From Psammoneis japonica (Eukaryota), in the NCBI GenBank assembly GCA_008632985.1, contig QPGO01000081.1, positions 62,001 through 126,000 of the forward strand: DNA of 64,000 bases, given 5' to 3'. A program made the translations under genes and the position numbers. Position 1 is the first letter of the stretch, and each line of letters starts with the position of its first letter. The notes beneath the pieces are model-generated. The model ran no database searches. It had not been told where the DNA came from and saw only the letters and a list, made by a program, of their open reading frames with translations. Positions 1 through 64,000 of the stretch are shown here, in pieces.

Positions 1-1915
1 GTGCCCTGCACGCCCTCACTCTGTGTGCTTGTAACTTTTGCAAAGAAATAAAAATTTCGTGAATGACACCCCAATCAGGAGCCAGGGTGTTGGAGACATG
101 GTGCCTCAGGCGAAAATCCCGTTCACGGTGAGTCTCGTCCGCATCGTCGGGGTGTGGGGGCAGTGCCTCAAGTTCTGAACATTGCGGACAAAGGAAGAGT
201 TGTCGCAGCGACACTCCATCCCAAGTGGAAAAGTCCAATTGCAAAATTTCATAACACAAAGAAGGAACAGCACCACTGAAAGGCAACCACAAGCCTCTGT
301 GCGACACGAGAAGGACGAAATCCAAAGACTGGGCCTGCACAATCCGCCAGAAAAACTCCACCAACAGACAACGTCCAGCCAAAGGCACCATTGCACTGCA
401 CCACCGAGCCATCGCTGCCAACCATTGCACGAGAGTCAGCCAATGTTTCCGCTAGTTCAAACACTGACACGTGCAGCGTCAAGTCTTGAAACAGGGCCGA
501 TTCCCATTTGGGCAAAGAACGGACCCAAGCAACAAAATCACCCGGGACAGGGAGACACGGAGGAATGGATGCTTTAGAGAAAGATGATTGAAGATGCCAC
601 TTTCCATCATTGGTGGTGTCGATCAAAACAGGAGATGCCGAAGGCGACAAGTCCGGAACAGTCTCTGGGTGCCTCAAAGATTCTGCGCATCCGTCTCGGA
701 CGGGATGCACATTGCATCCGATGTCAGACCGGATGTGCAAAAACTGTTCGCTCGGTTCAAAGCAGGCCGGGAATTGCACGCGCATGTCGGCAGCAGCAAC
801 AATCCATTGTCCCAATGGATGTTTCAGCGAACAAGTGTCATCCCTGCAAAACATGGTGCACGCTCGACACCACTGCTTCCAAGCTCTGGGAGACGGAGAC
901 GGCTGCTCCACTGGGTTGTTCAATGAAAAACTGCTGAGGAGGGAGCGATCACCTGCCAATTTAAATGCATCAATGGATCGACCATCTGGAAGAGCAATGT
1001 CAGAAACCGTGAGCACATTGAGATGCAATCAACAGCAATTGATCCAGCGGATCTCTTTGTCAGAGAATTCACCAGACTCAAGTGCAACATAGAATTCACC
1101 AGACTCAAGTGCAACATCCATGATGCGCTGATCGTTGTCCCACTGAAGGGGCAACACACCCGCATCGTCCAAGTCGAGAGAGGCATTGGTCCGAGCCAGA
1201 AAAGATCGCAGAGACATGAACCATTTAGATTCGGAATGAGGCAGTTTGGAATGGACATCCACTGAAAAGCTGATGCCAGTGCCCAATTGAAACTGTGTCC
1301 AAGCCACCGTAATGCGTGACAAAACATTGGGTTGACCACTGCCGCACCAGTGCCGAACAAACTGCATGCATTGGGACATGCCTTGTTCCACGTCTAACGA
1401 CCGAAAACTGCCTCCACCAAGGGTACACGGACCAAAAAGCACGTCTCGTTTTGTGTTTCGGTTGTACCCGCACTTTGCAAAAATCGTCCGCATCGCTTTC
1501 CGCTGAACCTCCAACAATTCCTTTGGCAAGAAGTGAGCATTTGGGAGATTGTGAGACACAGACGACAAGCAGCAGACGAAGTGATGCATCCAAGCTTCGT
1601 GTCTGTCAAGAGGACACGCTCTAAGGAACAAAGCAATGTCATCGCTCTTCCTCTTTGACGCCAAGCATTGCATTTTCTGAGCACCAGCGGGAAACTTGCA
1701 GTGCCCTAAGGTCTTGTGAGATGAGTGAGCCGAAAGCTGGGTGCTGGACCTCTTGGCAGCACGGTCGGCGGAGAAAATTTCAATGTCAATTTCGTCATTA
1801 AAGGGGTGCAAGCAAGGTTCGCCATCCTCCGTGAAAATCCATTCGACAGCATGAAATGAGCATTTGGGAAGCTCCAGTTCGTGGCCAGCAGCATTGAGAA
1901 GGTCGCACCACATTT
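1..1915 (-). mobile_element. 5'-truncated, degenerate non-LTR retrotransposon (Ambal-like): RT C-terminus and RNase H; probably continues past the window start
   Basis: ORFs 1029..2465 (C-terminal part), 249..1028 and 106..396 carry AKCGYNRNTKRDVLFGP..GGGSFRSL, the RNase H motifs GSDGSV..GAFGW and SCRTEACG (S[Y]RAEA[Y]G), and CDN. They are collinear with the copy at 4590-7211. Frameshifts and stops are present. The family name is recalled, not searched. Confidence 0.75.
1064..1117. repeat. 27-bp exact tandem duplication inside the LINE
   Basis: agaattcaccagactcaagtgcaacat occurs at 1064-1090 and 1091-1117. Confidence 0.95.
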
Positions 1916-2465
1916 GGTTGTTGTTGCTGTTGCCATTGTGCCTCTCAATGAAATCAACAATGCAATCGCACAATTCCAGGGGAGCACCACGTGTGTCCAT
2001 GATCTTCTTGCACAACTCTGCGCAAGCTCCGTCAAGATTTGTCAAAGAGGGAGTAGAAGCCAAGGCCTCTTCTGCAGGAGCGTCATGCCTGGTGCCCAAA
2101 CGTTGATCCTCATCGTGAATGTTCTCTTCCTCCTCCATTGTCACGTCCAACACTGCAGCAAAGGATTGACCACCGCCAACATCCAAATCGTTCATTGCCA
2201 AAAGTTCAACTCCATGCATGCTGTGGTTTGATGAAATGGAGGACATGTCGTCCATTCCGTGCGGTGCGTCATCCTGGGAGGGGAACAAGGGGCTGCTGCT
2301 CGGATCACTCGTTGAAGATCTTGGGAATCTGCTGTGAGCAGATCGCCTTGGATGGGATTCATCATCATCAGAGGATGAAGAGGAAGAGCTGCCGCTTTCT
2401 TCGGGTGGCCCCTCTGTTGTGGCAGGAATGTCGCTTTGATCTGGGATCAGATCTTGGGTTTGCAA
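1916..2465 (-). pseudogene. N-terminal fragment of a putative Plavaka/CACTA-like transposase, interrupted by the LINE
   Basis: Acidic, Ser-rich N-terminus followed by ELCKKIMDTRGAPLELCDCIVDFIERH, which resembles the L..L...gAPLyLyD.I..w segment of diatom Plavaka-like transposases once C is read back as Y. TpA-depleted. Confidence 0.35.
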
Positions 2466-2799
2466 CTCTTGGGCAACTGAGTAAGACGTCGGTGAGTGTC
2501 TCCAATGGCAGGCTGTTCACAAAAAACTTTGGCCACAACCGGGACAGAGAAGAGGGTTTCCGTCCATTGTCAATCAGACAACATTGACAGGGCCTTCATC
2601 AAGACTCAGACTCATGCTCGTCATCCTTGTCTTGTGGATGAGAAGGGAAAAGAAGAACAACATGCAAAAAATGGCGGGAAATTGGCAAACATTACATTGT
2701 GTTCCAGATTGGGATGATTCTCACAGGTGTGACATGTCTGCATTTTGATTTTTTATCTGGCACTCACAATGAACATTGCACTTTTTATTTGCTGTCAAA

Positions 2800-4250
2800 A
2801 TGCAGAATGTTGTCTCCGTTGAAACGCAATGACAGCCATGCCAAAAAGCAAGTTGGACAATTCGTTGTCACACACAAACACACTTTCAAATTTCAATGTT
2901 GCTGACAACAATTCATGCAATGTCACAGAGAAAAACAGAGTGCCTGGCTGTCTCAACACGACCCAAACGACGGCTGCACTGTTGAACAGCACCACTCCTC
3001 TCATTGTTGCCGTGAATCTCCAGCACCACCGGCAAAGAAGAGAAAGAAAAATGAGACCATTGAGCCAATGAGCCCGAGACTTCAGGCAGTGTTGAAGAGA
3101 ACAAGCACACAGGCAGCGCATGGTGCACTGAAATCAGAAGTGGAGAAGGTGGCTGGAAATGATCTCTTTCCACAGGTGAAGTTTCTCAGTCCGTCAGAAT
3201 TGGCAAGCAATGAGAGCGTCTCAATGTTTGTCAAGAAACAGATTGCTGGTGGCAACATGGACACTTCAAATTGGTCAGGAACTTGGGAGGAATGGGCAAA
3301 AAAGGCGGTAAAAAGGCAAACCAACAATCGCAGAAACACGGTGTGTTCGGCCATTGGGGTGGAGGCTGTGGCCCGCAAGTTGAGTGACCAATGTGTGTGA
3401 TTCGAGAGTTGCGTGTATCTCACAATAAGATGACAGTGATGCTTTGTCTACACAGGCGTTGTCACTGAGGAAGAGGGAAAGGAAAAAGAAAAGAAACTCA
3501 AGGCGGCAGTCAGGAGGATAAAGCAATGCAGGAAAAAGTCAGGCCGTGACAAGAATGAAGAGAATGACACCCCGTTTGTGCCGACATGGGATCCGTTTGG
3601 CCTGGACACTGTCACCAGCGGCAAACGAAGGAACAAGCAGGCACGCAAGTGGTTCTGTGATCACATCCTACCTCAAACCAAGCAAAAGCAGGCATGGAGC
3701 AGCACCATCAAAACTGGGAACGCACAGGTCTCACAGTTGTTTGCGGTCGGTGACGAAGCTTTGGCGATGTTGGCTGTGGAGAATTGTTGGCAGGTGTGGG
3801 CATGCAGGAACAAGGAGGAGGCGGTGGAAGAATTTGGGTGAGGAAATGGAGCCCGAAGAAACAAGGCCTGCCCCTCGGTGCATGAAGCCAAAGAAACAAC
3901 GAGTGTCTTGGGGAGACGAAGGAATCAATCGGTTCAACGATTCATGCAAAGAGGTGACGAAAGACAGAGACTCCAAGGAGGGCAAGGAGTTTGAAAAGTG
4001 GCATGCGGAGATCAAGAAAAGCGAGCATGACAAGTCCGGAGAAGCAAAAAAGAAGAAGAAGAAAGCACCGACCGGTGATGTGGAGAAGGCCAAGGCAATG
4101 AACAGCCTGATGGTGGAGAGCAGCAGGGATGATGACAGCAACGACGATGAGCAGGAGGAAGGGGCAAAAGGCAAAACGGACGACGGAGGAGACGAGTCCA
4201 ATGGAGACGAGTCCGATGATGATTGGCAGCTCAGTTTGAGAGAGTTGCAG
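2800..4250 (+). pseudogene. Degenerate intron-containing transposon accessory ORF (CACTA/Plavaka ORF2-like), divergent from the fragment at 1916-2465; boundaries approximate
   Basis: ORF 2915..3400 joins in frame to ORF 3578..3841 across an intron at 3375..3455 (gcaagt...cacag). Motifs FCDHILP, SQLFAVGDEALAMLAVENCW and SWGDEGINRFNDSCKEV..DR, then a Lys/acidic tail. Frameshifted and TpA-depleted. Confidence 0.45.
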
Positions 4251-4589
4251 CAAGAAAATGTGTGCACAGTTGACATGGCACTCGGTCATTGCACTGCAGA
4301 CGTAACGAGGGATTGACCCAACCGATGAAATGATTTCTTGATTAAAACAATGTTTGTGAAAATTAACAAACCAAGGATTGTGTGGAAATGCAACCACGAA
4401 CTGGCATGTGGCAACAAGGTGGAGGCAGAAACAGTGATGTGGGCACAGTGAAAAATGGCGTGCACAATTCTCAATGAGTCATTGCAATGTTGGTGTGCCA
4501 AACTTGCAACCAGAGGTTGGCCTTCAATCATGTGACAATGATTTTTTGCAATGTTTTGACAAATTGTCATCATGCAAATCTGCACATTT

Positions 4590-7211
4590 TTAACATTTCA
4601 TGCACTCTGATGACTGCTTTGCGTGCCACCTGGCCTCCACCACGCATGTCCTTCCGAGTGCACATTTTCAGCCGAAAGATTTGCTTGAGATTCAACGAAG
4701 GGCTGTGCGAACTACATTTGCTAAGTGCGGCTACAACCGCAATGCCAAGCGGGATGTTTCATGCGGACCGCACACCTTGGGAGGTGGAGGATTCCGTTCT
4801 CTTGATGTGGAGCAGGTTGTCGCTCAATGTTTGCAGTTCCTTCGACACTGGCACGGAACTGGACAACCTCATGCTTTGTCCCACATTGCAGTGGCATGGA
4901 CACAGTTTCAGCTTGGAACAGGGTCCAGTTTTCTGCACGATGTAAACACAAAACTCCCACACTCCGAGTCCAAATGGTTTGTGTCAATGAGATCCTTTCT
5001 CGCCCGCATGGATGCTCACTTCAAACTGGACTTCACTGGCGTCCTTCCTGCACAACGAGAGAATGATCAATGCATCATGGACGTGGCACTGGAGTCTGAT
5101 CTTTTCTCTGAAAAAGAGATTGGGTGGGTGAATCATTGCAGGCTGTTCCTTCGGGTGCTTGCTGTTTCAGATGTTGCTCTTCCCGATGGTCGACATTTGG
5201 ACGATTTCAAGTTGAAAGGGCAAACTTCCCTTGTGAGTGGCACGTCATCACTCAATCCAGTCGAACAGGTGCGCCCATCTACTCGCACATGGAAACAATG
5301 GAACCGGGTGATGGCTCTGTTGTGCGACGATGGCACCTCCATCCTCCGAACCCCTTTAGGTCAATGGACCGTTCCGGCCTCCAAGATGCACATGCTTCAT
5401 CCTGCCCATTGCAAGCCCTTCAAAGAGTTTTTGTGCGTCCGCTCTGATGCGGGCCATCAAGTGTTTCCAGTCAAGGATGCGTGCGCTGAAACACTGCAGC
5501 AGTTGGAGACGGTTCCAGATCTATCTCCACTGGCATCACCTGTCATGGTGGACACGACTCTAGACGGCAGATGGTGCGTAAGATCCACTGCATCCCCAGT
5601 GAAGATGCCTCCAACAATTCCCATCCTCGGGGACTTCCGCGAATGGCTGCGGTCCTTGTCGTCATGGGAGTCAACCCTGTTCAGTGCGCTGACCATGCAC
5701 ACATCGGTGTTCAAAATGGCGGAGTCCCTTGGGCGCTTCTGTGCAGAAGCAGGAGGTGACGGCTCTGTGTTGCATTTTAGTGGCACCTTTGGCTGGACGC
5801 TGGCAGTCAATGGAGTGATTCTGGTGGATTGTGCAGGACCGGTCTTTGGATTCCGACCGTCCTCGTGTCGTGCAGAAGCACACGGATTTTCATCAGTTCT
5901 CCGCTTTCTGATTCGAGTGCTGGATTTTTGCAACTGTCATTTTTCTCACGGTGTGGTTGCCTGTTGTGACAACTCCTCTCTGGTGCACAACGTTGCCAAC
6001 CTTCATTCTCCTCCACCACTTCCATTGGATGCAGATGATTCACAACGACAACAAGATTTTCATTCTCGGAATCACATTGCTGACACGTTGGCGCCAGACT
6101 GGGACGTCATCCACGAGATCTTTGATTCACTAACAAGTTTGGAGGCCCAACACAACGGACACCCTGAAAGCAACGTGGTCAACATGACGTGGATTAAAAG
6201 CCATCAGGATGACAACACTCCGTTCGAGTCCCTCCCGTTTCCAGCCAAATTGAATGTTAGAGCTGATGGGTTGGCAGGTTCGTTTCAGGGTCAATGCATG
6301 GAGACACCTTGATGGCTCCTCGAATGCCCCATTGTCATGCACTGCTGAATGTCCAGTCGGCATCGGTGAACTCGAAGTTTAAATCAGTTCTCCATTGCAA
6401 AGCTTCCAGCCCAGCTCTGATCCAATGCATGCAGGAGAAGTGCGGATGGTCTGACTCAGTGTGCGAATCTGTTGATTGGAAAGTTCACTCCAAACTGATG
6501 TCTCGCAACATCCGACGAAAGGTGAGCACCGTGAAATTGGTTCAGGATCTGCTGCTGACGAACAAGATTGTCCACAGATGCAACCCCACATGCCCCGACT
6601 GCTGCGTGCACTGCCAACATCCCCTCAAAGACAGCGATCACATTCTGCGTTGTGCCCACAATGCATCGTGGTGGCGCACTTTTCTCCAAGGATTGTGGAA
6701 GAAATGTGACGACACACACACTTCCCCGTCCACACGAGACCTGTTGTTGCATGCCTTGGAAGGTTGGTTCAATGAGGACCTGCTCTGTTCTGCCCACATC
6801 CATCACAGTGTCACAGAGCTGTTTCAATCTCAAGATGACATTGGTTGGTGCCACATTTTCAGCGGGCGTTTCTCCTCTCTGTGGAATGAGGCACAAACGT
6901 CATGCCTGAAGTCCTCTGGCTTGTGTTGCTCCTCATCCGATGAAGACAAAAGATTAGACTGGATGGCAACTGTTGGCAGTTGTGTGTGGTCACAATGGTG
7001 GGAATTGTGGGACTCCCACAATGATGCAGTGCACGGACACAATTCAGAGACAAGAAAGTCCTCGCAAAGACGGGACACAGAGGCAGAGGTTAAAGAGATC
7101 CACTCTGGGGCAGACGAGCACTTGGCCCAGGATCGAGCAGAGTTGTTTGCTTCGGCAGATGAAAATCTCACCCATCCCACCACAGACTCCGAAACTGGCT
7201 CGCCATGGTAA
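4590..7211 (+). mobile_element. 5'-truncated, degenerate non-LTR retrotransposon (Ambal-like): RT tail, RNase H and C-terminal Cys-rich region
   Basis: ORF 4600..6312 has GGDGSV, SSCRAEAHG, CCDN, WIKSHQDD and AKLNVRADGLA (RNase H). ORF 6294..7211 has CxxC..DHILRC and QDDIGW..IFSGRFS..W. Homologous to the copy at 1-1915 in opposite orientation; the 3' end is not defined. Confidence 0.8.
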
Positions 7212-9139
7212 AACCAATGTTTGAGTCGAGCATTTGAGAGGCCCGGCGTCTGGCTGTTAGAGGCACCCGCACCATCGCAAGCCACTTTGGCGCGGCATCA
7301 CCTGAGGGTGATGCCGATCTTGGCCAATTGTCACATGCTCCTGCCACACCTGGTGTGCTGGGAGTGTGGGTTGGCTTGTTGCCGGAGTTGCAGGGTGGAA
7401 GCGCAGCAGCACTTAAAATTAGACTTTGGGTTTTGTTTTGTTTTTCTCCTTCCCCAAGGAAGCATTCACACAAATGATGACTCCTGGACCAGTGTGAATT
7501 GTTTCTGCCTTTTTTCTGGGCTTCCTGATGTCCAGCAGAGCATGCAATTTGTGAACAGACCAATGTCATTCTTCGGATTCACTCTGGATCATCCGATCAA
7601 ATTGGCAATTTTCTTCACTGAGGGCATCAGAATTTGATTCTTTGCCCTTGTGCTCTTTTTCTTTGTTCAAGGAACTCGCTTTGAGTGTTTTTTTGAACCG
7701 CCTGATCAACCATGACATTCAACTCTTTTTTTGCGAGTGGCATTTTCGTCATCGCGACGCCACGTGCGATTGCCATTTGAACGGTGCCGTTTCGGATCAC
7801 GCTCAATGTGTCCACGGCATTCTTTCACTAGTTCATTTTTAGAACAGCTTCAATCCGTGATGCAGGTGTTCTTTTTTCAAAGATTGCACCTTTTGTTCAC
7901 TTTGGATTGTTCAGGCACCACACAGGAGACCATTTTGGAACCAAGTTTGGAGCCATTTTGGATTTGGAATCAACTTTGCTGTCAGCGCCTGATTTGACAC
8001 ATTTTTTCGTCATGGACGTCTTCAACGACCTTTAGATGACTCAAAACTTAATCAGCTCATCAAGGATGAGTTGCAACAGTTGATTGTTTTGGACAGTAGA
8101 CTGATGCTGCCATCCTTGCGGTGCGAGTGACAGCTGACATCTCAGCGCTTGGTTTCCCGCTAGATTCGACTTAGAACAGATTGAAGGGTCGCAGAGACGC
8201 TCTTCGTTGACCTCTTGGGTCTAGCAGGCACTCTCTTGCTGCTGAGAGCCTTTGGTTTCTTCAGATCGTCTCGAAAACAACAACTCGGATTCTGAAGTGC
8301 AACTTCTTGGAAGACATGAGACAAGAGACACTTGAGGTGCTTTTCAATGCTTTCTTCTTGGTCTTCAGACTTGAAGCTTGTTGATTCGGTCTCCTTGTTT
8401 TCTCCAACAGTCTCTCCTTGCATGGCAGATGCATTTCTCAGACCTGATTGACTCGTGACCTGAAATTCTATCCAACCATGACTTGGTGTAGATGTTTCAA
8501 AAATGCTGTGCACTTGTGGAGTCCTTGGTCCTGAGGCACTTGGAATGGATTATGTCAGAGCGAACCCTCTTGTCTTGCAGACAAAAAACAGTGTTCCATC
8601 TTGAGGCATTGCTCGAATTGAGCTGCTTCCGCTTGGAAATCAATTCCAGCAGAACTCATGCATTTCATGCCTGCTCATGGAAGAATTTGCAAAGGCACAC
8701 TAGTTAAAATTTTCATTTTCCGTGTTTTTACCTTCTGTGGTGTGTATGCACAATGCACTGTGCTCGAAGAATGAGCACAAACGAAAGTAGAATCAAGCAT
8801 GAAAAGTGAAAATTATGAGATTAAATTTTGCTCTGTGATTTTTGGTTTCTCCGAATGAGTTCTCAATGGCCCAAAGCTTCTGCACTGCTTCTACAGACAA
8901 AAGGCCTTTCGGAGAATGTGTTCGTGACAACAGATTGTCCAGATGTGATTGCCATTGACACGCAAGATGTCAACATCGTCAATCAATCGCACTTGCAATT
9001 TTCGACATCCGATCAACTCTGTGTGATCGTTCTGTCCTTTGCACGCATCCACGACTGTGGTGCAATTGACACACAAATGACATGTAATTGCAAATGTGCA
9101 CATGACAGTCGCATGCTGCAGGAGGTCGTGTGGGTCAAC

Positions 9140-11846
9140 CATCATTGACTCATGGCAGTTGCCGGCTCGTGGGTTGCAAGGGGGCAGACGAGAATGCTCA
9201 AGGATGATCACCTTGGAGGAATGGGGCAACGAATCCCAGATCCGTTGGTGGTCGGGAGGGGGACATTTCCATTGGTGCTGGCAAGGCTGGGACTGCGGGC
9301 ACAGGCAGTGTTGGCCTGAAGGATGTCAATGTCACTGTCGATGTCACAGTCAGAACACATCATTGGATGGCTCCTCGGAGCCACAATGTTGATCGCATGT
9401 GAGGCTCTTGCCACTCTGCGTGCAATGTTGATCAGCTTGGTTCTTGATGGCGCAAAGTTCCTCGACAGGATGTGCGGCATTCTCAAGCATGACGTGCTTC
9501 TGTCCTTCAGAGAAGTGGTCACTGGCCGGGATGAGGGCCTCGCACTTGCGCAACTGATCCTGCCAATGAAGGATGAACCCATGGGTCAGACCTTTCCAAG
9601 TGCCATCACCAAGGCGTGCGGTGGTGAGGTGCATGAGCAAGGTGGAGGACTTGACAGATGCACGGGTGGAGGCAAGCGCACACTCGGACAAGGCGCAGCA
9701 GATGGTCTGGGCGTCAGAAGACCCCACATTTTTGCGAATGAGAGCCTTGCCCTTGTCGGTGAGAAAGATGTGTTTGAAGACTGCGAACATGTGCTTTTGC
9801 TGTTCAGCAAAGAGCAGTTTGTCTTCAGGACTGGTTGGTTTGTGTGTCGAGTCTAGAATGCACTCAACGTCTTGGGCACGGGCTTGCACCACAAATGAGG
9901 TGTGCCAAGTGTGCCACTGCTTGTCGGACTTGAGAGCCGTGAAAGCAGTGTTGGGGTCACGCTTGATGCCTCACTTGAAGTCTCGCACTGGGTCGCGTGC
10001 CTTGGTGGGGCCAGTGACGTGCGGAGGTGCAAGAGGTGAGCTGCCGATGGACACAGAAGACATGCAGTCGACGGGATTCCAGTCTCAGGTGGGACTTTTT
10101 GTGACATTGGGCCCGCAGAATTCCACATGTGCAAGCTCCATGGTAAAATTGTCAAGCAATGAAAATGTGAATGATCACCAACAGAAAAAGAGGCAATTTT
10201 GCGAGTGCATCTCCTCCTCCACACTTGAAGCACATTGTTGACAGCATGCCCGGGTGCATTCTTCAGACATTCAAGAACATGCCCAGCGCATTTTTGTTGT
10301 CATAAATGCAGAAAACAGAAAGCCTTTGGCTTTGCAAAACAGGCAATGTGGAACAATTTTTTACAATGGAACACGTGGAAATGTGCATGCGAAACATGCG
10401 ACAGATGACAAAAAATGATTGGCTGTGTCACAGTCCAGCAATGCGAGGTCCCACCTAGAGCTGGAATGCGTCAGTCGGGGCTGAGGCGGCAGGCAAGGAA
10501 CTCATCATGCGTGAACAACGAAGAGTCATTGGCAACATCAAGGCCCTTGTGTGCTTTGACAATGCACAGACCAGCCAGAGCTGCCAACATGTTCTTGTGA
10601 CCTCGGGGCAATGGGACCACATTGGTGCCGTTGTCGCACTCGAGCAAGTCGATTTGGGAAAGCATGAACATGAACAGTTCTTGGTGCGAGTCCGTGTCGT
10701 CGTGGGCCAGAGCCAAACGAAGAGGACTTCCAGCACCTTGGGCAAGCACAGTTCCAACAACGTGTCCAAAACCATTGGTTTGTTGCTGACCAGTGAGAAC
10801 CATGTTGGACAAAAGCGGTGTCAGGGCAAGCGATTCTTGTTGTTGGGACACAGAGGCAGACTTGAAACTTGGGTTGGAATGGACTTGACTTGAAATGGAC
10901 TTGACTTGAAATCTTGAACTGTGTTAAAATCAGAAGTCGCCGGGCTGTGCTATCCCGTTTGTTGTCAAGTGCTAAACTTCAAATCCGGTCCGCAGAGTTG
11001 TGCCGGCACGTCCGAACCCGCAGCCAGCGGCGCTTTGGGTTGCTTGCAAGTGGAGCAGTGGGTTGTAAACCCCTGCAGGCAAGCTGACTAGAGGTGGACA
11101 AGACCCCCGAACCATTCTTGTTTTGTGTTGGTTGGATTTCCCGATCAGGCGCTGTGGACGAACGAACAAACGTGGGAAAACACCCTCGCCCCAACGCAGG
11201 CTGCAATCATGGCTGCTTGCTCTCACAGTTGTCCTCATGGACCCAGCAGAACTGTGGAGCACCAGCAGTCCAGGGCAGATCAGGTGCAACAGACTCGGTG
11301 TGCTTGTAGAGTGGCAGCAAAGCCGGAGTCCAAAGAGTGGGTTCAAGTTCTTGGCCGTGAAGACATGCATGTAATTGGTGACGAAGATCCTTGAACATGT
11401 GGGGTTCTTGACCATCAACCGTTGAATGTGCACACAAGGCGATGAGGATCAAGAACAGATTTGAACACAACTGTTGAGTGTGTGTCTTCAGCGACAAAAG
11501 GTGGTGTGATCAATCCAGACATCCAGCGGCAAGGAGACTTGACGGTGACGTTAAATTCCTGCCATGCTGGCATTGAATGCGCGCAGACTTGCCGACGCAC
11601 ACGTAGAACATGCACGGAGGTCCACGCAGAATTGAAACAGCATCGTCGGTAGATCAACGATGATGATGGCGGTTGCTCAATGGGTTGACAATGAGCAAGA
11701 CTGTCAATCTGACAGAAATTGAAGGGCAAATGGCAAGAATTCAAACAACAACTCCTTGCTGCTGTCTAAACAGCAGATGAGTCTCCGCTCAGAGACCACT
11801 GCAGGAGCCGAAAGACGTGTGAGTCGGTGTGATGGGCTGCTGTCAT
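9140..11846 (-). mobile_element. Truncated second copy of the Copia element at 14510-21601 (partial 5' LTR, 5' UTR, gag)
   Basis: Direct alignment to about 19060-21465. The LTR boundary tgacagaaatt is at 11710 and similarity stops near 11846. Has an internal deletion near 9380 and a MITE at 10070-10472. Confidence 0.92.
10070..10472. mobile_element. 403-bp non-autonomous TIR element (MITE) with a 4-bp TSD
   Basis: Absent from the sister Copia (gacatgcagtcgggg at about 20066-20080). Imperfect TIRs gacgggattccagtctcaggtgggac / gtcccacctagagctggaatgcgtc. TSD agtc at 10066-10069 and 10473-10476. Confidence 0.85.
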
Positions 11847-14509: not shown

Positions 14510-14785
14510 TGACAGAAATTGAAGGCAAATGGCAAGAATTCAAACAACAACTCCTCACTGCTGTCTAAACAGCAGATGAGTCTCTGCTCAGAGACCGTTG
14601 CAGGAGCCGAAAGACGTGCAAGTCGGTGTGATCGGGCCACTGTCATTGTTCTTGTGAGCCTTGTGGCTCGAAAGCAAACTACATCGCGCGCGAACGCGTG
14701 GAACTAAAGCACACAAAACTGTGCGTGGCAAACTAAACAGCGCGCGACATTTCGCGCACACCCAAAACCTGTTCAAATCCTGTCA
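14510..14785 (-). repeat. Copia 3' LTR (276 bp)
   Basis: Aligns end to end with 21327-21601; PPT adjacent. Confidence 0.93.
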
Positions 14786-14789
14786 CTCC

Positions 14790-45825: not shown

Positions 45826-45870
<45 letters not shown>

Positions 45871-46270: not shown

Positions 46271-46576
46271 TGTCTGTTCATGCTGAGTCAAATGATGCAG
46301 GCGAGCTCGTCTCTTGTCCTAAAGGTCCTATGATGCCACAGTGCAAAGGAATTGCACTTGAGAATGACTAGAGCGCGGACATCAATTGTCAGCTACCACA
46401 CGAGTCAGTCGTTCCTTTGGAAAATCCAGTGTCCAACTGCATCAAAAAGACGACACGATGCACACACGACCCTAGTTGAATACACACTGAGCAAACACGG
46501 TCCGTTTCAATCAAAAATGTACAAACTTCTGCCCAAAACACACACATCATACACACATTGAGCTACTTGTTCATTA

Positions 46577-54562: not shown

Positions 54563-57500
54563 TCATGTGTTGTTTTTTGACATGGCTATTGCGATATCCA
54601 AAGCTTCGGTGGAAGTCACATCTGAGACATCTCGAGGAACCGGCGAATAATCTGAGTCCGAACCGTCATCGCCACCCTCGTCTTGCTGCTGCCCATCCAA
54701 TGCAGCCGCACTTGAAAACTGTGGAGGTTGATCTTCCCATTCTTCCAAGTCTTTTGCGTAGCCTGAATACATGATATCTTGAGGATCCTGTTGCTGTGCA
54801 TCCATATCTTCCAAGGATTCGACATGACTGGTGTAAGGTGCATCGTCCTCCACATACTCAATACTCTCGTGAAGTTCTTGTTGTTCCTTTTCATAACGTT
54901 GTCGTTCTGCGAGATTCTTTTTATGCAGGTGAAAAAGCCCAAAGCCAGCAAGAATAACAACGGCTAGGCCGGCAAACGTGGCAGACAAAATGACTGCAAG
55001 GTTCCTTGAGTTGTCATCCGAGTCATTGTTGTCTGTTTCAGTTGTATTCTCCAGAGTATTAACACCCAAGATCCTCATTGGAGAATTGGGATTGATTACC
55101 CACAGATTTCGTTGCAAATCTCCATTTCGAATAGCCATGTCCATTCTGTTGGTGTACAAAACTCTAGACAGGTCGGCGTCTTCACCTTGGTCCAACTCGA
55201 ATATAAAAGACGCCGAAGCCGATTGACAAAGAAATGATTCTTCTTGCCCGTCTGGGCACTCCTTGTCGCGAATACCATTGAGTCTCCCACTCTCTTGGAT
55301 GTAGCTGACCAATCGGCGTTTCACAAGGCGACGGCGTCGACCATCAGCTGTCACAACCTGTTCGGCTGTTATGTCGTAGGCTTGCTCCAACTGGTTCCAA
55401 TTCAAACTACCCACGGACAAATCCGCAGCTCGTAATCCAACACTGTTGCCAATGTCAAACTCTGAGGCCACCCGGACTTGGTTGGAGGGCAACACGATTG
55501 TTGTTGGCATTGGACTAGGCGAGGTGTTTGGAGGGAGCGTAGGAGGTCCAGTGACATTTTCGACAGAGTAAACCTGTGCCTTGGATTGCTCACAAACAAA
55601 CTCCAGATTAGCCAATTGCTCCTCGGTGACATTTCGGTGTTGCTGCGGATAGTAGGATCCATATATGTCAATCTCATCTATGCCGTTGTTTGATGCTGTG
55701 GCAAAAAAGGCGTAATTGACACGCAACAGCAGATCCAAGCTTGCAAACTCTACGTCTTTGTAAAAACCGGTCCACAAGTAAAGAAAGTCAGCATAGTCCT
55801 CTCTGCTAAGGAACAAATCGCGGTTACTGTCCGCCAGGGCCAGTGCATACAAGCATTCCAGCCGCTCCTCCGTTATGGTAATATTTGGCTCTGGAGTAAT
55901 GGTGGTGCCATTTGTGATGCTAGTCTCGACCACTTGTTGAGTTTGACTGCAGAATTCAAACAAGTCCTCCAGCATCATGCCTTGAGGACCGGTCAGTGGA
56001 TAATAGTTTGCTCCCGAAACGGGCACTTCACCCGATGCAAACGCTTCAAAATTGTCTTTGACTTCGTCGGGTAAGTCGCCATACTCTTCAATTTTGGAGC
56101 TGTCGAGTAGAAAGTTAATATACTTGACGTATTCGTCCTTGTCCAAGCTACCATTGGAATTGGCATCGGCCAAGGCAAGCCCAGATAAGCACCGCAACTC
56201 GACAACCGTATACGTTGCAACGTTGGTCACGGGCGTTGGAGATGAAGTAGGAAACTCCCCAGGCTCCGGTAACGCCGCCCTTGTTACAAAGCATAAAGAT
56301 TCCAAGTCTCGAAATTGGTCGAGCGTTGCGTTTTGTCGCGGATAGTAGGAACCAAAAATGTTGATGGCTCTCGCAAACATGTTTCGTTCCATGGAGAACT
56401 TGGTAAACACGGCCTTCAACACGGCCGACAGATTTCCAAAATTTAAATCTTTGGTACGAGACAAGAAGCCGACAAATGCGGCGAATTCTTGGGAATCCAT
56501 CCACGAATCCCCATTGTCATCTGCAAACGCCATGCTAAACAAACACTCCAACGTTTCCACCGTGGCTTTGTATCCAGAGCTTGGTACAGTCGGTTGATTA
56601 CCCGTCAAGGTAAAGACAGCGTCGGTGGTTTCACTGCAGAAATCCAGCAACAAGGATATCTCTGCCTGGGAGGCGTCATTTGGAAACCTTGCGCTCTGCA
56701 CGCTTAGTCCATTGTTCGAGTTGTACACAGTCTGGAGAGATACTGGTAGATTTCCAAATGATTCCTCATCGATTTCATTATTGGAAATGACACGAACATA
56801 ATCAAGAAATTCCTGCCGGCTCAACCGTAGATTGAAATCTTCATCTGAAAAGACGAGTGCAAAGAGGCATTCCAGTTGATTCAAAGGAAAGACTGAATAG
56901 TTCTGTTGACGAGAAGGTGTAGGGGGTGGAGTGCGGGACGGCGGAGTTGCGGAGGGTGGAATGGGGGACGGCCGAGTGGGAGACGGCCGATTGGGGAACG
57001 GCGGAGTGGAGGAGGGAGGGGTTGGGGACGGCGGAGTGGAGGAGGGAGCAGTGGGTGACGGTGGAGTGGGTGACGGTGGAGTGGGAGACGGCGGAGTTGC
57101 GGAGGGAGGAGTGAAGGATGGCGGAGTTGCGGAGGGTGGAGTGGGGGACGGCGGAGTTGCGGATGGAGGAGTGAAGGACGGCGGAGTTGCGGAGGGTGGA
57201 GTGGAGGACGGCGGATTTGTGGAGGGTGGAGTGGGGGACGGCGGAGTTGCGGAGGGAGGAGTGGAGGACGGCGGATTTGCGGAGGGTGGAGTGGAGGACG
57301 GCGGAGTTGCGGAGGGAGGAGTGAAGGACGGTGGAGTTGCGGAGGGTGGAGTGGAGGACGGCGGAGTTGCGGAGGATGGGGTGGAGGAGGAAGTGGCATC
57401 TTCAATAGCCGCAAGGGTGTCTTCACAAGTCGACACTAAATGAGCTTCGTTGACGTCGTCTCTTGTAATGTTCCAGGCAAACTTGGTTTCATCTGGTGTC

Positions 57501-57790
57501 CTGTCGAGAAGAAAGGTCATCACAAAATTGCCTCGCAAGACAACAGGGAGATCGTCCCATGTCCTTGCTTTAGGAAAGGCCTTGTTGGACAGCTGCTGAA
57601 CAAAACCAAGGTATTCGGTGCGATCCAAAAACAGATCGCCATTACCATCGTTGGCCAACATGGCCTCGTAACACACATCGGTTGTCGTTTTGAGAGCGCG
57701 AGTATCGATACCGGTGAATTCAGATAGCCCATTGCAACAAGCAATTGCATTTGCCGCCAATGCTAGAAACGTTGTTGCATAGCACCTCAT
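54563..57790 (-). CDS. Type I membrane/cell-surface protein: signal peptide, five Cys-flanked EF-hand-like repeats, Pro/Ser/Thr linker, C-terminal TM (about 1075 aa)
   Basis: Signal peptide [19 protein letters not shown]; five copies of C...(L/M)..(A/N/S)D.N.D..L...E(Y/F)..(F/Y); [25 protein letters not shown]; acidic tail. Confidence 0.8.
56930..57385 (-). repeat. Coding minisatellite, 15-bp unit encoding xTPPS (about 30 copies)
   Basis: Seen directly in both DNA and translation. Confidence 0.92.
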
Positions 57791-58299
57791 AGTGAGGCTC
57801 GAATCTTTGCTGTTGACCAAATCAAAACGATTTTGTGTAGGTCTGATTTTGCGGGAATTGGAAACGCAAGTTCTGTGCATCAGAATGATGGTCGTCCGAA
57901 ATTTTCGTTTCGACAGTGACCAAGAGATCCATGGATGATGGACAAAATTGGGACAACAGAACATATTTGAAAATAGCATGAACTTTGAAATCGTGTGAAC
58001 GTACAGTACATGTTTCACAACGGAGACTTTTTCAATGTTTATAATTCATGCATCAAAATATTTATAAAACCTAAGTATTGATTTTTGTGTAGTTCTCTTG
58101 TAGTTTTTTCCGTTCTGCTGTCGTTCCCCTCCGGCTCACTGCTTGTGTTACTCCCGGGCGATCGCTGCAGCAGGGCCCTCTCTATCTCTGTCTGCTCTGC
58201 TCTTAAAGTGCCATGTCCTGGCAGCCAGTGGCCAGCAGCTCTGTGAATCAATCATGAAAATCACACGCGACTCTTTTTACAGCCACTGCCTGGTGGCCA

Positions 58300-61200
58300 T
58301 CTATGCTGATGAGGGCGGAGGGGTGCATCGTTGCCACCACTTGGCTGAAAACAGCGGGTGTCCAGGCAGAAACCAAGCTCTCTCCACATCAGTGCCACCT
58401 GCAGTTTCTCACACTCACAAAGTGGCATTTCCATCTTGGAATTTTGAATGTCACTGGTGGGTCATTGAAAAACAAAAAAACCAGCACAGGTGCACACCCA
58501 GAGCTCTCTTGCATTTGAAAAAATGCAGAGGTGCAGCCAACAAAGGCTGGTGTCTTGGCTTGTGTCAGAGTGCAGGGCACGCTGTGCTGGTTTCTTTGCA
58601 TCACAAACTTTGTTGTTGCTCTGGCACTTGCCTTTGCAATGACTGCAACAGGCATGCCTGCCGCAGCCACCGATGATGCTGCATTTTTCCCGCATCTGTC
58701 AGCTGCCCACAGCTGACAGCTGACTGCACAGATGCGCACACTGCAAAATGTGATTCCTCGCACAAGACCTGCAACAGGCTGCAGGAGCACCATGTGACCA
58801 AGTTGTGTGGTGCAACTGGCCATTGTGCAAGTGACTTGCATTGTGCAAAGAGTCTGTGCAGGAGATCTGTGAGGTGCAGCGCCGAGCACGGCTGATTCTG
58901 AGCATGCAGGAGCTGCAAAACTCCATGTGACATGGTGCGGTTTGAAGTTTCTGGCTGCTCTGCTTCTTGATCACAAAATGAAGGACCTGATGCAATGCAA
59001 GGAAACCTGCCAAAAATGACAGAACAACAATTTGCAGGATGATTTGCCTCTTTCACAATCTTTTTTGCAGAAGACTTTGCATCTTGAAGAAGAGTGCTGC
59101 TGACTGCAACAACATGGCCAGCATGCTGAGCCCTCAACAAGGATGAATCATTTGAATCTGACAGCTTCATTGCTCCTCTGGTTGTGCTTCATGGTGTGTT
59201 GCATTGTCAACATTTTTTCAAACAGTCATTTTAACCTTGTGATGTCAACACAGCGAGAGAACAAGCAACAAAAACAACCACATTTGTTGCCAAGACAGCA
59301 TTGCAAATGGCCCAAATGGTGGCCCGGCTCTCCAAATTTTCAAAGCTGGCTGTGAACTTGCAAGCAGATCAATCAGAGGCACTCAAGCAGCAGTGATCCA
59401 TTTTTTTCTGCTGCTCTCTGTGGGGCAGAACTCTCTCCACTGGTGGGGCCCTGCTGCTGCCAGGAGTGGAGAGGCTTTCCACACACACTCCACTGGCTGG
59501 AAAGCAGAGAACAGCAGCAGAAAGCATCGCACACCATTGACGGACCCTCAATCTGAATGGCAAAGCACATTTTTGGTGCACAATGATGTCACAGGTGGAA
59601 CTTCCGGAGACAAAATTGGGCCAGTGCATTTGAAATCACCAAAAATCAATCGCCAAATTCTGTCAATTGCCCCACTTGTTGAAACGACATCGCCAAAGTG
59701 CAGGTTGGTTGTCAATGACGTTGATCATTTCACAACTTAACCAAACAATGTTTCTGTCCCGTTTGTCGCCAACCCGGACATTTTGTCGCAATTCGCGTCT
59801 TTTCGCGACAAATCATCAATTCATTTAAGAAAATGTCGCCAAATGCGACAAAATGCCGTGTGTCCCTGGAACACGTCTGCAACAAAAATGGGCCAAACTC
59901 TGAAATTTGGGGAAGCGAAAAGCACTGCTCAAGGGCATGATGCTGTCATTGAGATTTTTGATTGATTCCATGAAAGGCCCCACTTTGGTGGAGACTGCTT
60001 GGGAGCATGCAATGGGTGACTGTGTGACCACCCTTCTTGTGGTGCAATGGCTTGTGGATTGTCCAATTCCTTGATTTTGAAAGGGCAATGCTGTGGAGCC
60101 TTCTGCCAACCTGCAACAATGCTCCATGACAATGTTGTAGCTTGGGTGCTTTGGAAAAATAAAAAAACTTAAGCGCCACTTTCCCCAGTCTGAGGAGTTG
60201 GGAAGAGAGCTGTCTCTTGGTGTGCAGACATGTCATGCAATTTTTTGAAGGACAAGCTCAATTGCCAGCTGTTTCACAGGGCAGAAAAGCACAGCAATGA
60301 ACTCAACTGGTCTCTGGTCAAGTTGAGCTGATGCAGTGTCATCTTGGGAGCTTGTGACCCAGCAATGAACCACTGGCTTGCAGAGAGAGACCCAGAGATG
60401 ATGTGCAGGAACACGTGCATGGCAGCAAAATCAGCTGGCAAGCTGTCTTGTCTCATGAGCAAGAGGCAACTCCGGTTAACTCTTTTGCACTGTGCAGTGG
60501 CCAGGGTGGTGAGGTGAAGTTCCAACAATGGCGCAGCAAGTTGTTTTGGATCCCTGGTCTTGAATTTGTTGATGTGACCTGCCAGGAGCTCAAGTCCACC
60601 AAGCAATGTGCAGCACACAAGTCGCGGACCATGGTTGCTGTGTGTTTGTGATTTTCATCATGCACTTGGCAGCTTCGTGGCTGTTGAGAAGAATGGACTC
60701 TTTCACAGCACCAGCAACAAGAACACTGAACAGTTTGTGTTTCCTGACCTTCGCAGTGCGAAAGATGGGTGTCCGTGGCAAGCCTGATGACAGACACACC
60801 AGCAAAAGTTCCACTCTGTCTGTCAAGTCAATTTGCAAGGGTCGCTTGCACTCCAGAGCTTGAAGCTTGCCCTGCACAAGGACTTTGGACCATGCAAGTC
60901 TCGTGGCCATGCAGAACAGGATGTGACATTGGCACCTCTCAAGACAGTTGCTTTGATTGGTTGTCAGTGGTGTGCAGCTTGCCTGGTGGGTGAGTGCCAG
61001 TGGGGTGGACAGAAGCATGCTGATCTGGGTGTGCATCCTCCTCAACTCAAGTGTCTCTGGAGTTGGTGCAAGAATCCTGAGCAGCTTGAAAAGTTTGTGG
61101 GTTCACTCTGCATCATTTCACTCATTGACTTTCTTTGTGAAGGCCATCTGCGCCCCATTCTTTGGACTGCTGCCACATCTTTGACAATGCATCACCCAAA

Positions 61201-62050
61201 AATGATGGCTGAATGTGGCAACCACAATGTTGTTGTCAACAAGCTGCACCTGGTGGTGAACAAAATTGGCCTCAGCGATGTGGAGTTCCCAGAGGACTGT
61301 CCTGTTGCAGTGCTGTTGCGCTGGTCTGAGCAAGCCCATGTGTTGACTTCTGCCATCACAATGTTGAGATTGCTCCAGCAACATCGGCCCACATGACATG
61401 GTCAGTCTCATCAACGCCATCCAGCAACAGTCAGAACTCATTGCAACATGCAGGCAACAATCAGTTGGAAGACAGAGGCTTTGACATCACTGCAAGGTGC
61501 CCCATCTGTTCCCAGCTGATCAAGATTGTAAATCTTGGCAAGCACCATGTGTCAACAAACCAAGCTTTGCAGCTGGCATTGGGCGATCTGTCCAAGATGC
61601 AGCGAAAATTGGCTGAAGGTGTTCTGCACACCTCCAGGATCACACGCAAAGCAATGAGCCAAGCTGCCCCATGGTGGGCCACCTGCAAAGCACTCTGCAC
61701 TTGACCTCATCATCCAAGACACAAAGCTGCCATCACCCAAGAAGAACAAGCCACCGCCACCCAAGAAGCAGCCACCCTGGAGAAGCTGCTTTGGGCATCA
61801 TGCTGGTTGGAGCCAGAGCTCCTCCAGCCAAAGTGAGTGACTTGTTCCATTTTGGCACTGAGGCTGAATGTGTGGCCAGCAGCAAGCAAGACAGAACCAA
61901 AGACATGAAAGTGAGCATGTTCATTTGTGACACCTGTGCAATGCCGGCCATTTCTTCATGCAGGCAGGCACTCTTGACTTGAGCAAAATCATCCATTGCC
62001 TTGCATTGATTCAAAGGAAGGGTCAACCTTCAGGGCCTGCATGGAGCTGG
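58300..62050 (-). mobile_element. Highly degenerate putative second YR (DIRS-order) retrotransposon
   Basis: Remnant motifs in shifting frames: PSANFRCILDRS, LAKIYNL..SDVKA.F and LVDNNIV (RT-like, about 61.2-61.65 kb); TFCSVRICA and MQHHRW (YR-like, about 58.65-58.76 kb). Near-total TpA and CpG loss. Confidence 0.4.
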
Positions 62051-62163
62051 TGGAGCAGGTGATGATGGATGAGCAGCATGCTGATCTGAAAAAGAAGGAG
62101 ACCTCGATCGACCCCGTCTGTTGGAAGTTGGGGACGCTGTGGACAACAAATGCAGCATGTTCA

Positions 62164-62622
62164 CTTGAAATGTTTGAGTGGAGCATGGGACCCCAGTGAC
62201 TCCAAATCCTGAGTGAAATCAACCTGTCTTGCATTGGGAAAGAGGGTGGCAGACAGAGCACAAGACCAAGAAAGGCAATGGCAAGCTTGTGCACCCTTCG
62301 GAAGCAAAGAAACAAATGCTTGAAATGTTTGAGTGGAGCAGGGGACTCCAGCAACTCCAAATCCTGAGCAAAACCAACCTGTCTTGCATTGGGAAAGAGG
62401 GCGGCAGAGCACAACACCAAGAAAGGCAATGGCAAGCTTGTGCGCCCCCTTCAGAAGCAAAGAAACAAATGCTTGAAATGTTTGAGTGGACCAGGGGACC
62501 CCAGCAACTCCAAATCCTGAGCAAAACCAACCTGTCTTGCATTGGGAAAGAGGGTGGCAGAGCACAAGACCAAGAAAGGCAGTGGCAAGCTTGCGCACAC
62601 CCTTCGGAAGCAAAGAAACAAA
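62164..62622. repeat. Tandem repeat, three units of about 153 bp
   Basis: cttgaaatgtttgagtgga starts at 62164, 62319 and 62472. Confidence 0.92.
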
Positions 62623-62842
62623 CAAAACCACAGCAGGATTTTTTGGAAAAGGCCAAGAAACAACTTGGCTTTAAAAGGCACCAGTTGTCATTAAAAGGCA
62701 TCAGTGATTGGGAGCACATGGTTGGCGACAGTGCTTGAAAGCTTTGGAAAAGGGCAACTTTCGCCACATGTCGGCAATGATTCCTCGACTCTGCATGCCG
62801 CTGCGGCTCAGCTGTGTTCCGTTCGACGTGGCTTGCAGTCTC

Positions 62843-63855
62843 CATCGTGAGTCTTTGCATCGACCGTTCTTCGAGACTCACGATGGAGCGGAGAGCAGAG
62901 AGTGGTTTGACTTTCAAGGGCTGAGATGAGCGCGCGGATGCAGGAAGTGGTCAGTCCCGCCTGCTCGTGACTCAGTGCTTTTCTGCGGTGAAAATTGCGT
63001 GGAGATCCGAAGATGACAAAAACGGCCTGATGACTTCCGCTGACAACAACATCAACTGCATGCAATGTGCATTCGATGTTCTGCAATGCATGAATTAACA
63101 ACTTCAAGCATTGGATGCAGTTGCTTTGATGAATTTCACCAAAATGACACTGAGCCCTGCATTGCGTGCAAATCCACAGCACTCCGCACGACTCGTGTTT
63201 CGTTTCGGACAACTTCCAATTCGTCAAAGCAACTGCATCTAATGCCCAAAATGGTTTGTTCAAGCATTGACGAACACAGAATGCATGTTGCATGCAATTG
63301 ACATTGTTGTCAGCGGAAGTCATCTGACCGTTTTTGTCATAGTCGGATTCCTGCGCAATTTTCACCGTGGGGAAGCACTGAGTCACGAGCAGGTGGGACT
63401 GACCATTTCCTGCATCCGCGCGCTCGCCTCAGCCCTCAAAAGCAGAACCGCTCTCCGCTCTCCGCTCCATCGTGAGTCTCGAAGAACGGTCGACACAAAG
63501 ACTCACGATGAATTGACACCTTTGAGCATTGGATGCAGTTGCTTTGATGAATTTCACCAAAATGACGCCAAGCCCTGTGTTGCGTGCAAATCCACGGCAC
63601 TCCACACGATTCATGTTTTGTTTTGGATGACTTCCAATTCGTCAAAGTGACTGCATGCAATGCCTGAAATAGCCAATTCAACTGTCAACGAACACAGAAT
63701 GTACATTGGGTGCAGCTCATGTTGCAGTTAGCGGAAGTTGTCTGACCGTTTTTGTCATCGTCGGATTCCTGCGCAATTTTCACCGTAGAAATGTGCTGAG
63801 TCACGAGTGGGCGGGACTGACCACTTCCTGCATCCGCGCGCTCGCCTCAGTCCTC
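62843..63855. repeat. Composite inverted and tandem repeat (A' B A B A)
   Basis: About 62843-63080 is the reverse complement of about 63272-63510; about 63090-63430 is repeated at about 63510-63855. Confidence 0.8.
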
Positions 63856-64000
63856 AGCACATTCTCGCGTGAAAAAAAACACGTGCAGCAATCATTCTTG
63901 GCCGTTCAGATTAGAAGCCTGCACATGCAATCGATCCTCCTTGCTTTGCTGCACGTTGCATGTGATGATGTACTTCCAATTCACATGCCCCCATGCCCTG

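Follow-up and report, generated by a model that had tools for sequence, protein, structure and literature searches.

The 64-kb stretch analyzed here (the window; 64,000 bp of contig QPGO01000081.1 of the diatom Psammoneis japonica) carries host genes that alternate with blocks of mobile and repetitive DNA in which the dinucleotide TpA is nearly absent. Over this single 64-kb window, the observed/expected ratio (O/E) is 0.28 for TpA, 1.45 for CpA, 1.43 for TpG, and 0.76 for CpG. Two-state segmentation on TA occurrence delimits five low-TpA blocks, ~40 kb of the 64 kb, with a TpA O/E of 0.02 to 0.12 and with CpA and TpG reaching ~1.6. The normal-TpA segments that separate them carry host genes for a protein kinase, GDT1, a PH-domain protein, TruD, adenylosuccinate synthetase, a chlorophyll-binding (light-harvesting) protein, and Pus10. 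The largest block, 1-29197, consists of nested, decayed mobile elements and retains 185 TA (O/E 0.12; CG 0.73, TG 1.52, CA 1.53). The others are 32425-34662 (8 TA, O/E 0.05; CG 0.36), 37799-38709 (1 TA, O/E 0.02; CG 0.26), the non-coding block 44515-46319 with its internal direct repeats (2 TA, O/E 0.02; CG 0.16), and 58303-63999, which contains tandem and inverted repeats (19 TA, O/E 0.05; CG 0.41).

The block edges are sharp: in the space of tens of bases, a TA density of ~1 per 25 bp gives way to none at all. CpG drops at the same edges, less fully than TpA, its O/E being 0.16 to 0.73 across all five blocks and 0.87 to 1.15 in the host segments. An earlier note on this sequence had reported the TpA depletion by eye, and the depletion is real. 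The two TA-free intervals that it named are exact, each being bounded by consecutive TA sites, 58302 and 59232 in one case and 44514 and 45791 in the other. The longest TA-free run measures 1,277 bp, which at the host-segment rate (874 TA in 23,666 bp) has a probability of 1.4e-21. The neighboring genes do have normal TpA, as that note had said (O/E 0.46 to 0.54 in the segments that carry them, with sharp edges), and low TpA is limited to the mobile-element blocks. Its statement that nearly every repeat lacks TpA holds for the five blocks but is too broad, since 31908-32424 has 26 TA in 517 bp. A sixth low segment, 56921-57405, was set aside as unrelated to the TpA process, being a GC-rich 30-bp tandem array within an open reading frame (ORF). 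The array itself (56924-57388; 15.5 units, 83% matches, GC 0.68) is free of TA through its composition. It sits in a 1160-codon ORF, 54566-58045 on the minus strand, without a credible Pfam family and with weak low-complexity matches in overlapping frames.

Among 143 ORFs of at least 90 codons in the block 1-29197, a Pfam scan gives a single credible match, the Copia polyprotein frame at 15079-20499 (minus strand; 1807 codons without a stop; RVT_2, E 1.8e-23). Five further ORFs of the block have weak matches, with E values of 0.005 to 0.009, below the curated cut-offs. On either side of the polyprotein frame lie two long terminal repeats (LTRs) on the minus strand, the 3' LTR at 14510-14785 (276 bp) and the 5' LTR at 21327-21601 (275 bp), each with TG...CA termini. 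Outside them is a 5-bp target-site duplication (CACGA at 14505-14509, CACAA at 21602-21606) that matches at four of five bases, the mismatch being a CpG-to-CpA change in the flanking DNA. By its RVT_2 match, its TG...CA LTRs, and its 5-bp duplication, 14510-21601 is a complete Ty1/Copia LTR retrotransposon. Nearby are another, incomplete copy from this Copia family (9124-11846, minus strand), which matches 19041-21460 at 84 to 90%, and a second Copia-like fragment (11970-12690, plus strand) containing the motifs KKHDCLGM, HQDNKS, and IEHCP.

To establish what became of the missing TpA, the Copia frame was aligned with 30 intact relatives, in which 761 columns are conserved in at least 80% of the relatives. 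At the 41 conserved Tyr columns, the Copia ORF has Tyr in 5, Cys in 19, His in 13, and Phe in 4. The other conserved columns are unchanged in 643 of 720 cases, including 55 of 59 Arg columns (Fisher p 3e-27 versus the Tyr columns). The composition of the whole frame is skewed in the same way, at 0.4% Tyr, 4.0% Cys, and 4.7% His, where 120 Copia relatives have 3.85 +/- 0.34% Tyr with a minimum of 2.9%. As TAY to TGY and TAY to CAY are the two single transitions that abolish the TA of a Tyr codon, the ancestral state is read as TA. The direction proposed in the earlier note, TA to TG or CA, thus agrees with Tyr-to-Cys and Tyr-to-His changes against intact relatives in three elements. With the Tyr of the catalytic core replaced, the Copia copies cannot be functional.

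The change is specific to TpA. At codon position 2, A-to-G is found at 19 of 41 sites in a TA context and at 4 of 210 in AA, GA, and CA contexts (p 9e-14), so the lack of A-to-G enrichment at TpA that would have spoken against the proposal is not what we find. All four of the latter are Lys-to-Arg (4/42), with none among Asn-to-Ser (0/22), Asp-to-Gly (0/60), Glu-to-Gly (0/39), His-to-Arg (0/24), or Gln-to-Arg (0/23). At codon position 1, T-to-C is found at 13 of 41 sites before A and 1 of 91 before other bases (p 6e-7). The mutations therefore read as A:T-to-G:C transitions at TpA, giving TpG or CpA. All 10 peptide motifs quoted in the earlier note were located, four in the Copia ORF and three in the plus-strand fragment 11970-12690. 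That these motifs normally contain Tyr is borne out by a consensus of 25 relatives for KALYGL, DIGNAYL, and ETATYGSEF; the fourth, VFDVKHDGR, has Phe and is ambiguous.

Two other elements in the block 1-29197 show the same replacements. A non-LTR (APE-type) retroelement ORF at 4594-6309 (plus strand), whose relatives carry Exo_endo_phos and one of whose relatives has a weak RVT_1 match under the curated cut-off, contains 0.2% Tyr versus 4.0% in the matching segments of 33 relatives. Its nine conserved Tyr columns hold one Tyr, four His, two Cys, and two Phe, and there are three Leu-to-Ser changes in addition. The ORF at 25226-26416 (plus strand) belongs to an unclassified element whose relatives are proteins of ~380 amino acids without a Pfam family; its five conserved Tyr columns hold one Tyr, three His, and one Leu, accompanied by three Leu-to-Pro changes. 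The earlier label of tyrosine recombinase for this ORF finds no support, as neither it nor the intact relatives P0242 and P0247 match Pfam and P0242 has no match in PDB (E at most 1). An environmental relative of this ORF, P0243, has 0.5% Tyr and 2.3% Cys and may be one more case of the signature from beyond this genome. The open frame 21525-25769, of 1415 codons, lies upstream of the ORF and matches nothing in Pfam; in its central part, 23501-24500, TpA O/E is 0.39 to 0.61, above the rest of the block. Long spurious ORFs fill the blocks because TAA and TAG are gone. TpA-erased elements thus invite false gene calls, and the changes from Tyr to Cys or His blunt profile searches, as the one credible Pfam match in the largest block illustrates. 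The depletion is confined to mobile DNA, namely Copia, non-LTR, and other element remains, which is a property of TpA hypermutation of foreign DNA.

The LTR pair bears on when the mutations arose. The two LTRs of an element are identical when it integrates, as a consequence of reverse transcription. Those of the Copia element now differ by five CA/TG doublets, five CpG-to-TpG/CpA changes, one TA/TG difference, and five other single differences; 16 of 21 CpG and three TpA (all three CTA) are intact in both. At the per-copy rate of CpG decay (0.12), only 0.15 doublets are expected, and the probability of at least five is 5e-7. As the doublets are far above the expectation from CpG decay, ancestral TpA sites were apparently resolved separately in each LTR after integration, in line with the earlier note's claim that elements are inactivated in place. 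When hidden sites with the same outcome are included, the implied ancestral LTR had ~14 TpA in 275 bp, which fits the 51.7 per kb of intact relatives. By arithmetic from the LTR counts, each LTR has lost ~75% of its TpA, ~12% of its CpG, and ~0.9% of its other bases, so that loss of TpA far outpaces decay of CpG. The Copia interior agrees, with a TpA O/E of 0.04 to 0.27 and a CpG O/E of 0.72 to 0.99 in 500-bp windows across 15001-20500. Dating of elements by the divergence of their LTRs will overstate ages if sites derived from TpA are not masked.

Other duplicated sequences carry the same doublets. Between the second Copia copy and the main one, three aligned pieces contain 37 CA/TG doublets (24, 8, and 5), the direct-repeat units of 44515-46319 differ by 6 to 7, and a 668-bp sequence at 62843-63510, inside the block 58303-63999, matches its own reverse complement at 81% with eight doublets between its halves. 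Over nine copy pairs, there are 78 CA/TG doublets, where ~6 are expected from CpG.

Both strands are mutated, as the near balance of Cys (19) and His (13) in the Tyr columns (p 0.38) indicates and as the earlier note had proposed in placing the change on either strand. Runs tests on the order of outcomes in copy pairs reveal no strand-coordinated (processive) tracts (z -0.9 to +1.0). For the effect of flanking bases, host DNA was rejected as a stand-in for ancestral composition because it is confounded by base composition, and 77 intact loci were used as the baseline, these being relatives and not true ancestors. TpA survival in Copia is 0.00 to 0.05 in ATAN/NTAT contexts and 0.05 to 0.33 in the other classes, with 4 sites retained against ~175 expected in the former and 37 against ~192 in the latter (p 7e-8). 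Over all low blocks, the corresponding figures are 26 of ~981 expected and 190 of ~1,079 (p 1e-31). TpA with a 5' A, or equivalently a 3' T, is erased most completely. As TpA is self-complementary, an A at position -2 and a 3' T are indistinguishable as drivers of this context effect.

We also asked whether these families are natively poor in TpA and rich in Cys and His at the affected sites. Metagenome contigs scanned with the Copia family alignment yielded 79 loci, with a mean TpA O/E of 0.72 (standard deviation 0.17) and one locus below 0.3; 77 of the 79 range from 0.49 to 1.01. Among the eight lowest-ranked loci listed for each query there are no Tyr-to-Cys changes, aside from exceptions such as L078 and L069. 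Intact relatives therefore have normal TpA and Tyr, and a native origin of the pattern is not borne out. The exceptions repeat the pattern of the window: L078 (TpA O/E 0.02) has 1 Tyr, 8 Cys, and 12 His in 35 columns, and L069 (O/E 0.31) has 14 Tyr, 9 Cys, and 6 His in 39. As their DNA is only ~65% identical to that of the window Copia, they are independent elements in independent data sets.

The sequence was also compared with Logan contigs (word depth ~56) of run X1, which comes from the sole sequencing study containing the stretch. The X1 contigs reproduce the blocks and span their edges, with record 2 extending over 32545-38066 (14 other letters) and record 7 over 44448-45365 (5 other letters). 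As X1 is possibly the source sample of the assembly, this agreement rules out an assembly or polishing error but not a platform error. Six of the 40 differences listed between X1 and the window (172 in total) fall in low blocks, and two of these six, at 28762 and 33385, are TA in the window and TG in X1. Residual TpA amounts to 14 sites in the 6,152 bp of low blocks compared, and two of six differences falling there has a probability of 3e-4, which hints that the remaining TpA is still mutating or polymorphic.

What singles out the affected DNA may be something other than its copy number. The earlier note regarded repetition as the trigger, but this is unsupported: the stretch 31908-32424, which abuts the block 32425-34662, draws very many X1 contigs (a depth that is not a copy number) yet has normal TpA and CpG. 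Around it, the summed X1 word depth over 31335-32668 is 2,552 to 10,007 versus ~56 nearby, depth again not being a copy number, and at both 31908-31961 and 32426-32571 there are many loose ends of X1 contigs. These features hint at a short dispersed repeat in 31335-32668. CpG depletion is the usual footprint of cytosine methylation. Diatom cytosine methylation is located on transposons, according to the available part of PMC9998398. Since the low-TpA blocks are CpG-depleted while 31908-32424 keeps both TpA and CpG, we read the target as silenced mobile DNA and not as repetition, and we lean toward a process tied to silent or methylated chromatin.

Among the host genes between the blocks, adenylosuccinate synthetase (46577-47884, minus strand) starts ~260 bp from a block edge and has normal TpA. 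Its top named relatives are all from diatoms (Epithemia, Amphora, Seminavis, Mayamaea, and Cyclotella; 76 to 82% identity), which bears out a diatom host, as the earlier note had supposed, and distinguishes it from the alga Bigelowiella natans of the preprint considered below. A pair of 108-bp inverted repeats, 90% identical (42000-42107 and 44369-44476), flanks a TruD/COX5B-like region; one X1 contig links position 42070 with 44435, the two being separated in it by 4 other letters, and both repeats have elevated word depth. The pair may be a foldback repeat or one resembling a miniature inverted-repeat transposable element. A second run, X2 (labelled 'DNA?'), skips 35302-35422, 35566-35693, and 43921-44015, with GT..AG (or CT..AC) ends. 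It maps to genic parts alone, is transcriptome-like, and marks three introns of 93 to 126 bases. X2 gives no cover on the low-TpA stretches compared, which we do not take as evidence of silence. A third run, X3, gave no contigs on the parts compared.

The earlier note knew of no published description of such a process, but one now exists in a 2026 bioRxiv preprint (Mettrop et al., 10.64898/2026.01.13.699255), which reports it in B. natans. According to the available part of that text, two integrated viral regions received 231 of the 302 nuclear mutations in 15 mutation-accumulation lines; of these 231, 230 were A:T to G:C, every one of them on TpA. Only 11 of the 15 lines showed the hypermutation, and its rates lay close to 6e-7 per site per generation. 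Reverse transcriptase and DDE domains are over-represented in the TpA-poor coding sequences of B. natans, and an ADAT2-type deaminase is proposed by the authors (10.64898/2026.01.13.699255).

Taken together, these results make it very probable that a targeted, in-place, TpA-specific process is at work, and we infer that it is enzymatic and chromatin-directed. Mobile elements inserted in the diatom chromosome have, after integration, had their TpA turned into TpG or CpA on either strand, site by site, with the changes ending at the element edges. This has destroyed Tyr codons and removed TAA and TAG stops, leaving frames that are long and open but dead. The enzyme would be directed at silenced, cytosine-methylated mobile DNA and not at repetition as such. 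It might be a polynucleotide adenine deaminase recruited to silenced chromatin, which would turn the adenine of 5'-TA in chromosomal DNA into hypoxanthine, a base that is read as G. Taken as a whole, this explanation (a TpA-to-TpG/CpA process on integrated mobile elements that is enzymatic, silenced-DNA-directed, and based on adenine deamination) seems to us evenly poised between right and wrong. As for the chemistry, adenine deamination is a tentative choice about which we have slightly more doubt than confidence. It is nonetheless our best guess, and by analogy it agrees with the proposal made for B. natans.

Several observations weigh against parts of this explanation. CpG depletion, a proxy, is the one line that points to methylated chromatin, and in the youngest element, TpA was lost while CpG was little reduced. 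Run X1, if it is the source sample of the assembly, does not count as independent support. The Tyr codons that follow an A (three His, no Cys, one kept) are too few to tell which flank drives the context effect. No deaminase family is matched among the 306 ORF translations of the window that were scanned, which accords with the earlier note's placing of the enzyme outside the window. The natural tRNA context of TadA, which we take to be C-U-A-C, corresponds to CTAC; as CTAC is among the more resistant contexts (survival 0.13 to 0.22), a TadA-like enzyme that keeps its native preference is a poor fit. Lastly, adenine chemistry (A to G) and thymine chemistry (T to C on the other strand) leave the same sequence and cannot be separated by it.

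The thymine route deserves a hearing of its own. A TET/JBP-type enzyme could place a mutagenic mark on TpA in silenced DNA by converting T to 5-hydroxymethyl- or 5-formyl-uracil; such a T would occasionally pair with G, as 5-formyluracil does, giving T-to-C changes, an equivalent at A:T of the decay of CpG. Like CpG, TpA is self-complementary, which makes a symmetric mark plausible; outcomes are independent per site and equal between strands, as expected for the decay of a standing mark; and the blocks are also CpG-depleted. In dinoflagellates, 5-hydroxymethyluracil favors T in TA and TC, lies on repeats, and helps silence transposons (PMC11572971, available part). However, that paper does not mention diatoms. 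TC shows no comparable loss (O/E 1.02 in low blocks versus 1.08 in host segments), and the bursts in 11 of 15 B. natans lines, as described in the available text, are more in keeping with an induced enzyme than with a mark that is always present. We judge a thymine mark unlikely, though well worth keeping in view. Error-prone long-patch repair in heterochromatin starts instead from mismatches or lesions in methylated transposable elements, which would recruit a polymerase like DNA polymerase eta (Pol eta) that places G opposite T at WA, where W is A or T. The hotspot of Pol eta is indeed WA with A-to-G changes, as in somatic hypermutation, but WA includes AA, and the polymerase also makes transversions. 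The blocks are methylation-prone by the CpG proxy, so that T:G mismatches would be frequent, and the most sensitive context has an A or T adjoining TpA. The spectrum is nevertheless too clean, with A-to-G at 4 of 64 sites in the AA context (the Lys and Asn codons above) against 19 of 41 for TA, and conserved Tyr has gone to nearly only Cys or His where transversions would be expected. The young Copia has little CpG decay, so deamination of C was not the upstream trigger there, and the available B. natans text places 230 of 231 mutations in the two regions on TpA. We consider repair by such a polymerase distinctly improbable.

Editing before integration, in which element RNA (by an ADAR-like enzyme) or cDNA is hyperedited and then inserted, would explain why the tract ends exactly at the element ends, and ADAR-type enzymes prefer a U 5' of the edited A (10.64898/2026.01.13.699255, available part). 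Editing of a sense transcript would, however, yield only Tyr-to-Cys changes, and His accounts for 13 of 32. The LTR pair differs in outcome at the same sites, an argument that only editing of double-stranded cDNA escapes. The non-coding direct-repeat units within a block likewise differ by doublets, and, locus for locus, X1 and the window differ in residual TpA. This makes pre-integration editing very improbable. An artefact of sequencing or assembly, such as a modified base at TA that is systematically miscalled, has a precedent in that modified bases give motif-specific miscalls in some chemistries. Against this, the X1 contigs reproduce the blocks, although X1 is possibly the source sample; the unrelated metagenome contigs L078 and L069 show the same change of Tyr to Cys and His; and the B. 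natans result comes from Illumina resequencing, as its available text states. We give an artefact hardly any credence. Least credible of all is a TpA poverty intrinsic to or selected in the element families, for instance through codon usage or avoidance of nuclease sites. Most genomes are to some extent short of TpA, the host segments here included (O/E ~0.5), but the TpA of 77 of 79 environmental relatives is normal, the replacement of catalytic-core Tyr leaves the copies non-functional, and sister LTRs differ at the affected sites.

By analogy, the TpA process favored here appears to be of the same kind as that of B. natans, in a different lineage. Both, to judge from the available part of the preprint, change the same dinucleotide in the same direction on both strands, affect only foreign integrated DNA, and spare host DNA; the long-term footprint of both is clustered TpA depletion with gain of CpA and TpG. 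B. natans is a chlorarachniophyte (Rhizaria), whereas the host here is a diatom (Stramenopila). Its targets are viral, whereas those of the window are transposons and repeats, which are near saturation (O/E 0.02 to 0.12, compared with a Rho of 0.45 reported in the available text for a region from a nucleocytoplasmic large DNA virus). In B. natans the process was watched de novo, while here it is read from its footprint. What this analysis adds is the LTR-based evidence for action in place, the site-by-site independence of strands, and the preference for ATA/TAT. We found no report of TpA hypermutation in diatoms in a search that left most subscription journals outside, the B. natans preprint being the only report found. 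A mutation-accumulation study of Phaeodactylum tricornutum names CG, CC, and TG as mutagenic contexts and reports no TpA effect in its available part (PMC6604790).

Decay of CpG through deamination of 5-methylcytosine is similar in turning a self-complementary dinucleotide into TpG and CpA in silenced elements, and it acts in the same blocks. It cannot, however, remove TpA, and it is slower, with a per-copy loss in the LTRs of ~0.12 of CpG versus ~0.75 of TpA. As the cause of the skew it was rejected, being a separate process that explains ~6 of the 78 doublets. Somatic hypermutation by Pol eta resembles the window in making A-to-G changes with T or A before the mutated A; AA targets and transversions, which belong to its spectrum, are not seen here. 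APOBEC3, which acts on cDNA, and ADAR, which acts on double-stranded RNA, likewise use hypermutation as a defense, and ADAR shares the U or T before the edited A, as the available part of the preprint describes. Both act on replication intermediates and on one strand, whereas in the window both strands of integrated DNA are changed and sister LTRs diverge, and APOBEC changes C and not A. Hyperediting of RNA by an ADAR-type enzyme, fixed by retrotransposition, was rejected on the Tyr-to-His changes (13 of 32) and the differences between LTRs.

Repeat-induced point mutation (RIP) as found in Neurospora and other fungi is also a targeted transition hypermutation that permanently inactivates chromosomal mobile DNA, with a skew in dinucleotides as its trace. 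It responds to duplication ahead of meiosis, and its RID-type enzymes act on cytosine. Among diatoms, the RID-related DNMT4 has a patchy distribution, with 31 of 60 carrying it and P. tricornutum lacking it (PMC9998398, available part). RIP changes C to T mainly at CpA and so creates TpA, according to the available part of PMC7296669, whereas the window loses TpA and gains CpA and TpG; RIP was rejected, the direction being opposite. To our knowledge, the well-studied hypermutation defenses are all cytosine-based, and a targeted A:T-to-G:C mutator would be their mirror image. Also of interest for base editing would be a naturally occurring enzyme able to edit adenine (or thymine) in chromosomal DNA within a two-base context. 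If a diatom and a chlorarachniophyte both have the process, it is more than the curiosity of a single alga, and its gene should be findable by comparing genomes with and without the footprint. Diatoms and chlorarachniophytes might even share an old, chromatin-guided 'mutational immunity' that rewrites TpA in the double-stranded DNA of silenced mobile and viral inserts, by adenine deamination or thymine oxidation, with a preference for ATA/TAT and no need of duplication. We hold this last idea to be doubtful, but if true, such a shared system would be a third eukaryotic hypermutation defense beside RIP and APOBEC/ADAR, possibly spread across the lineages of stramenopiles, alveolates, and rhizarians.

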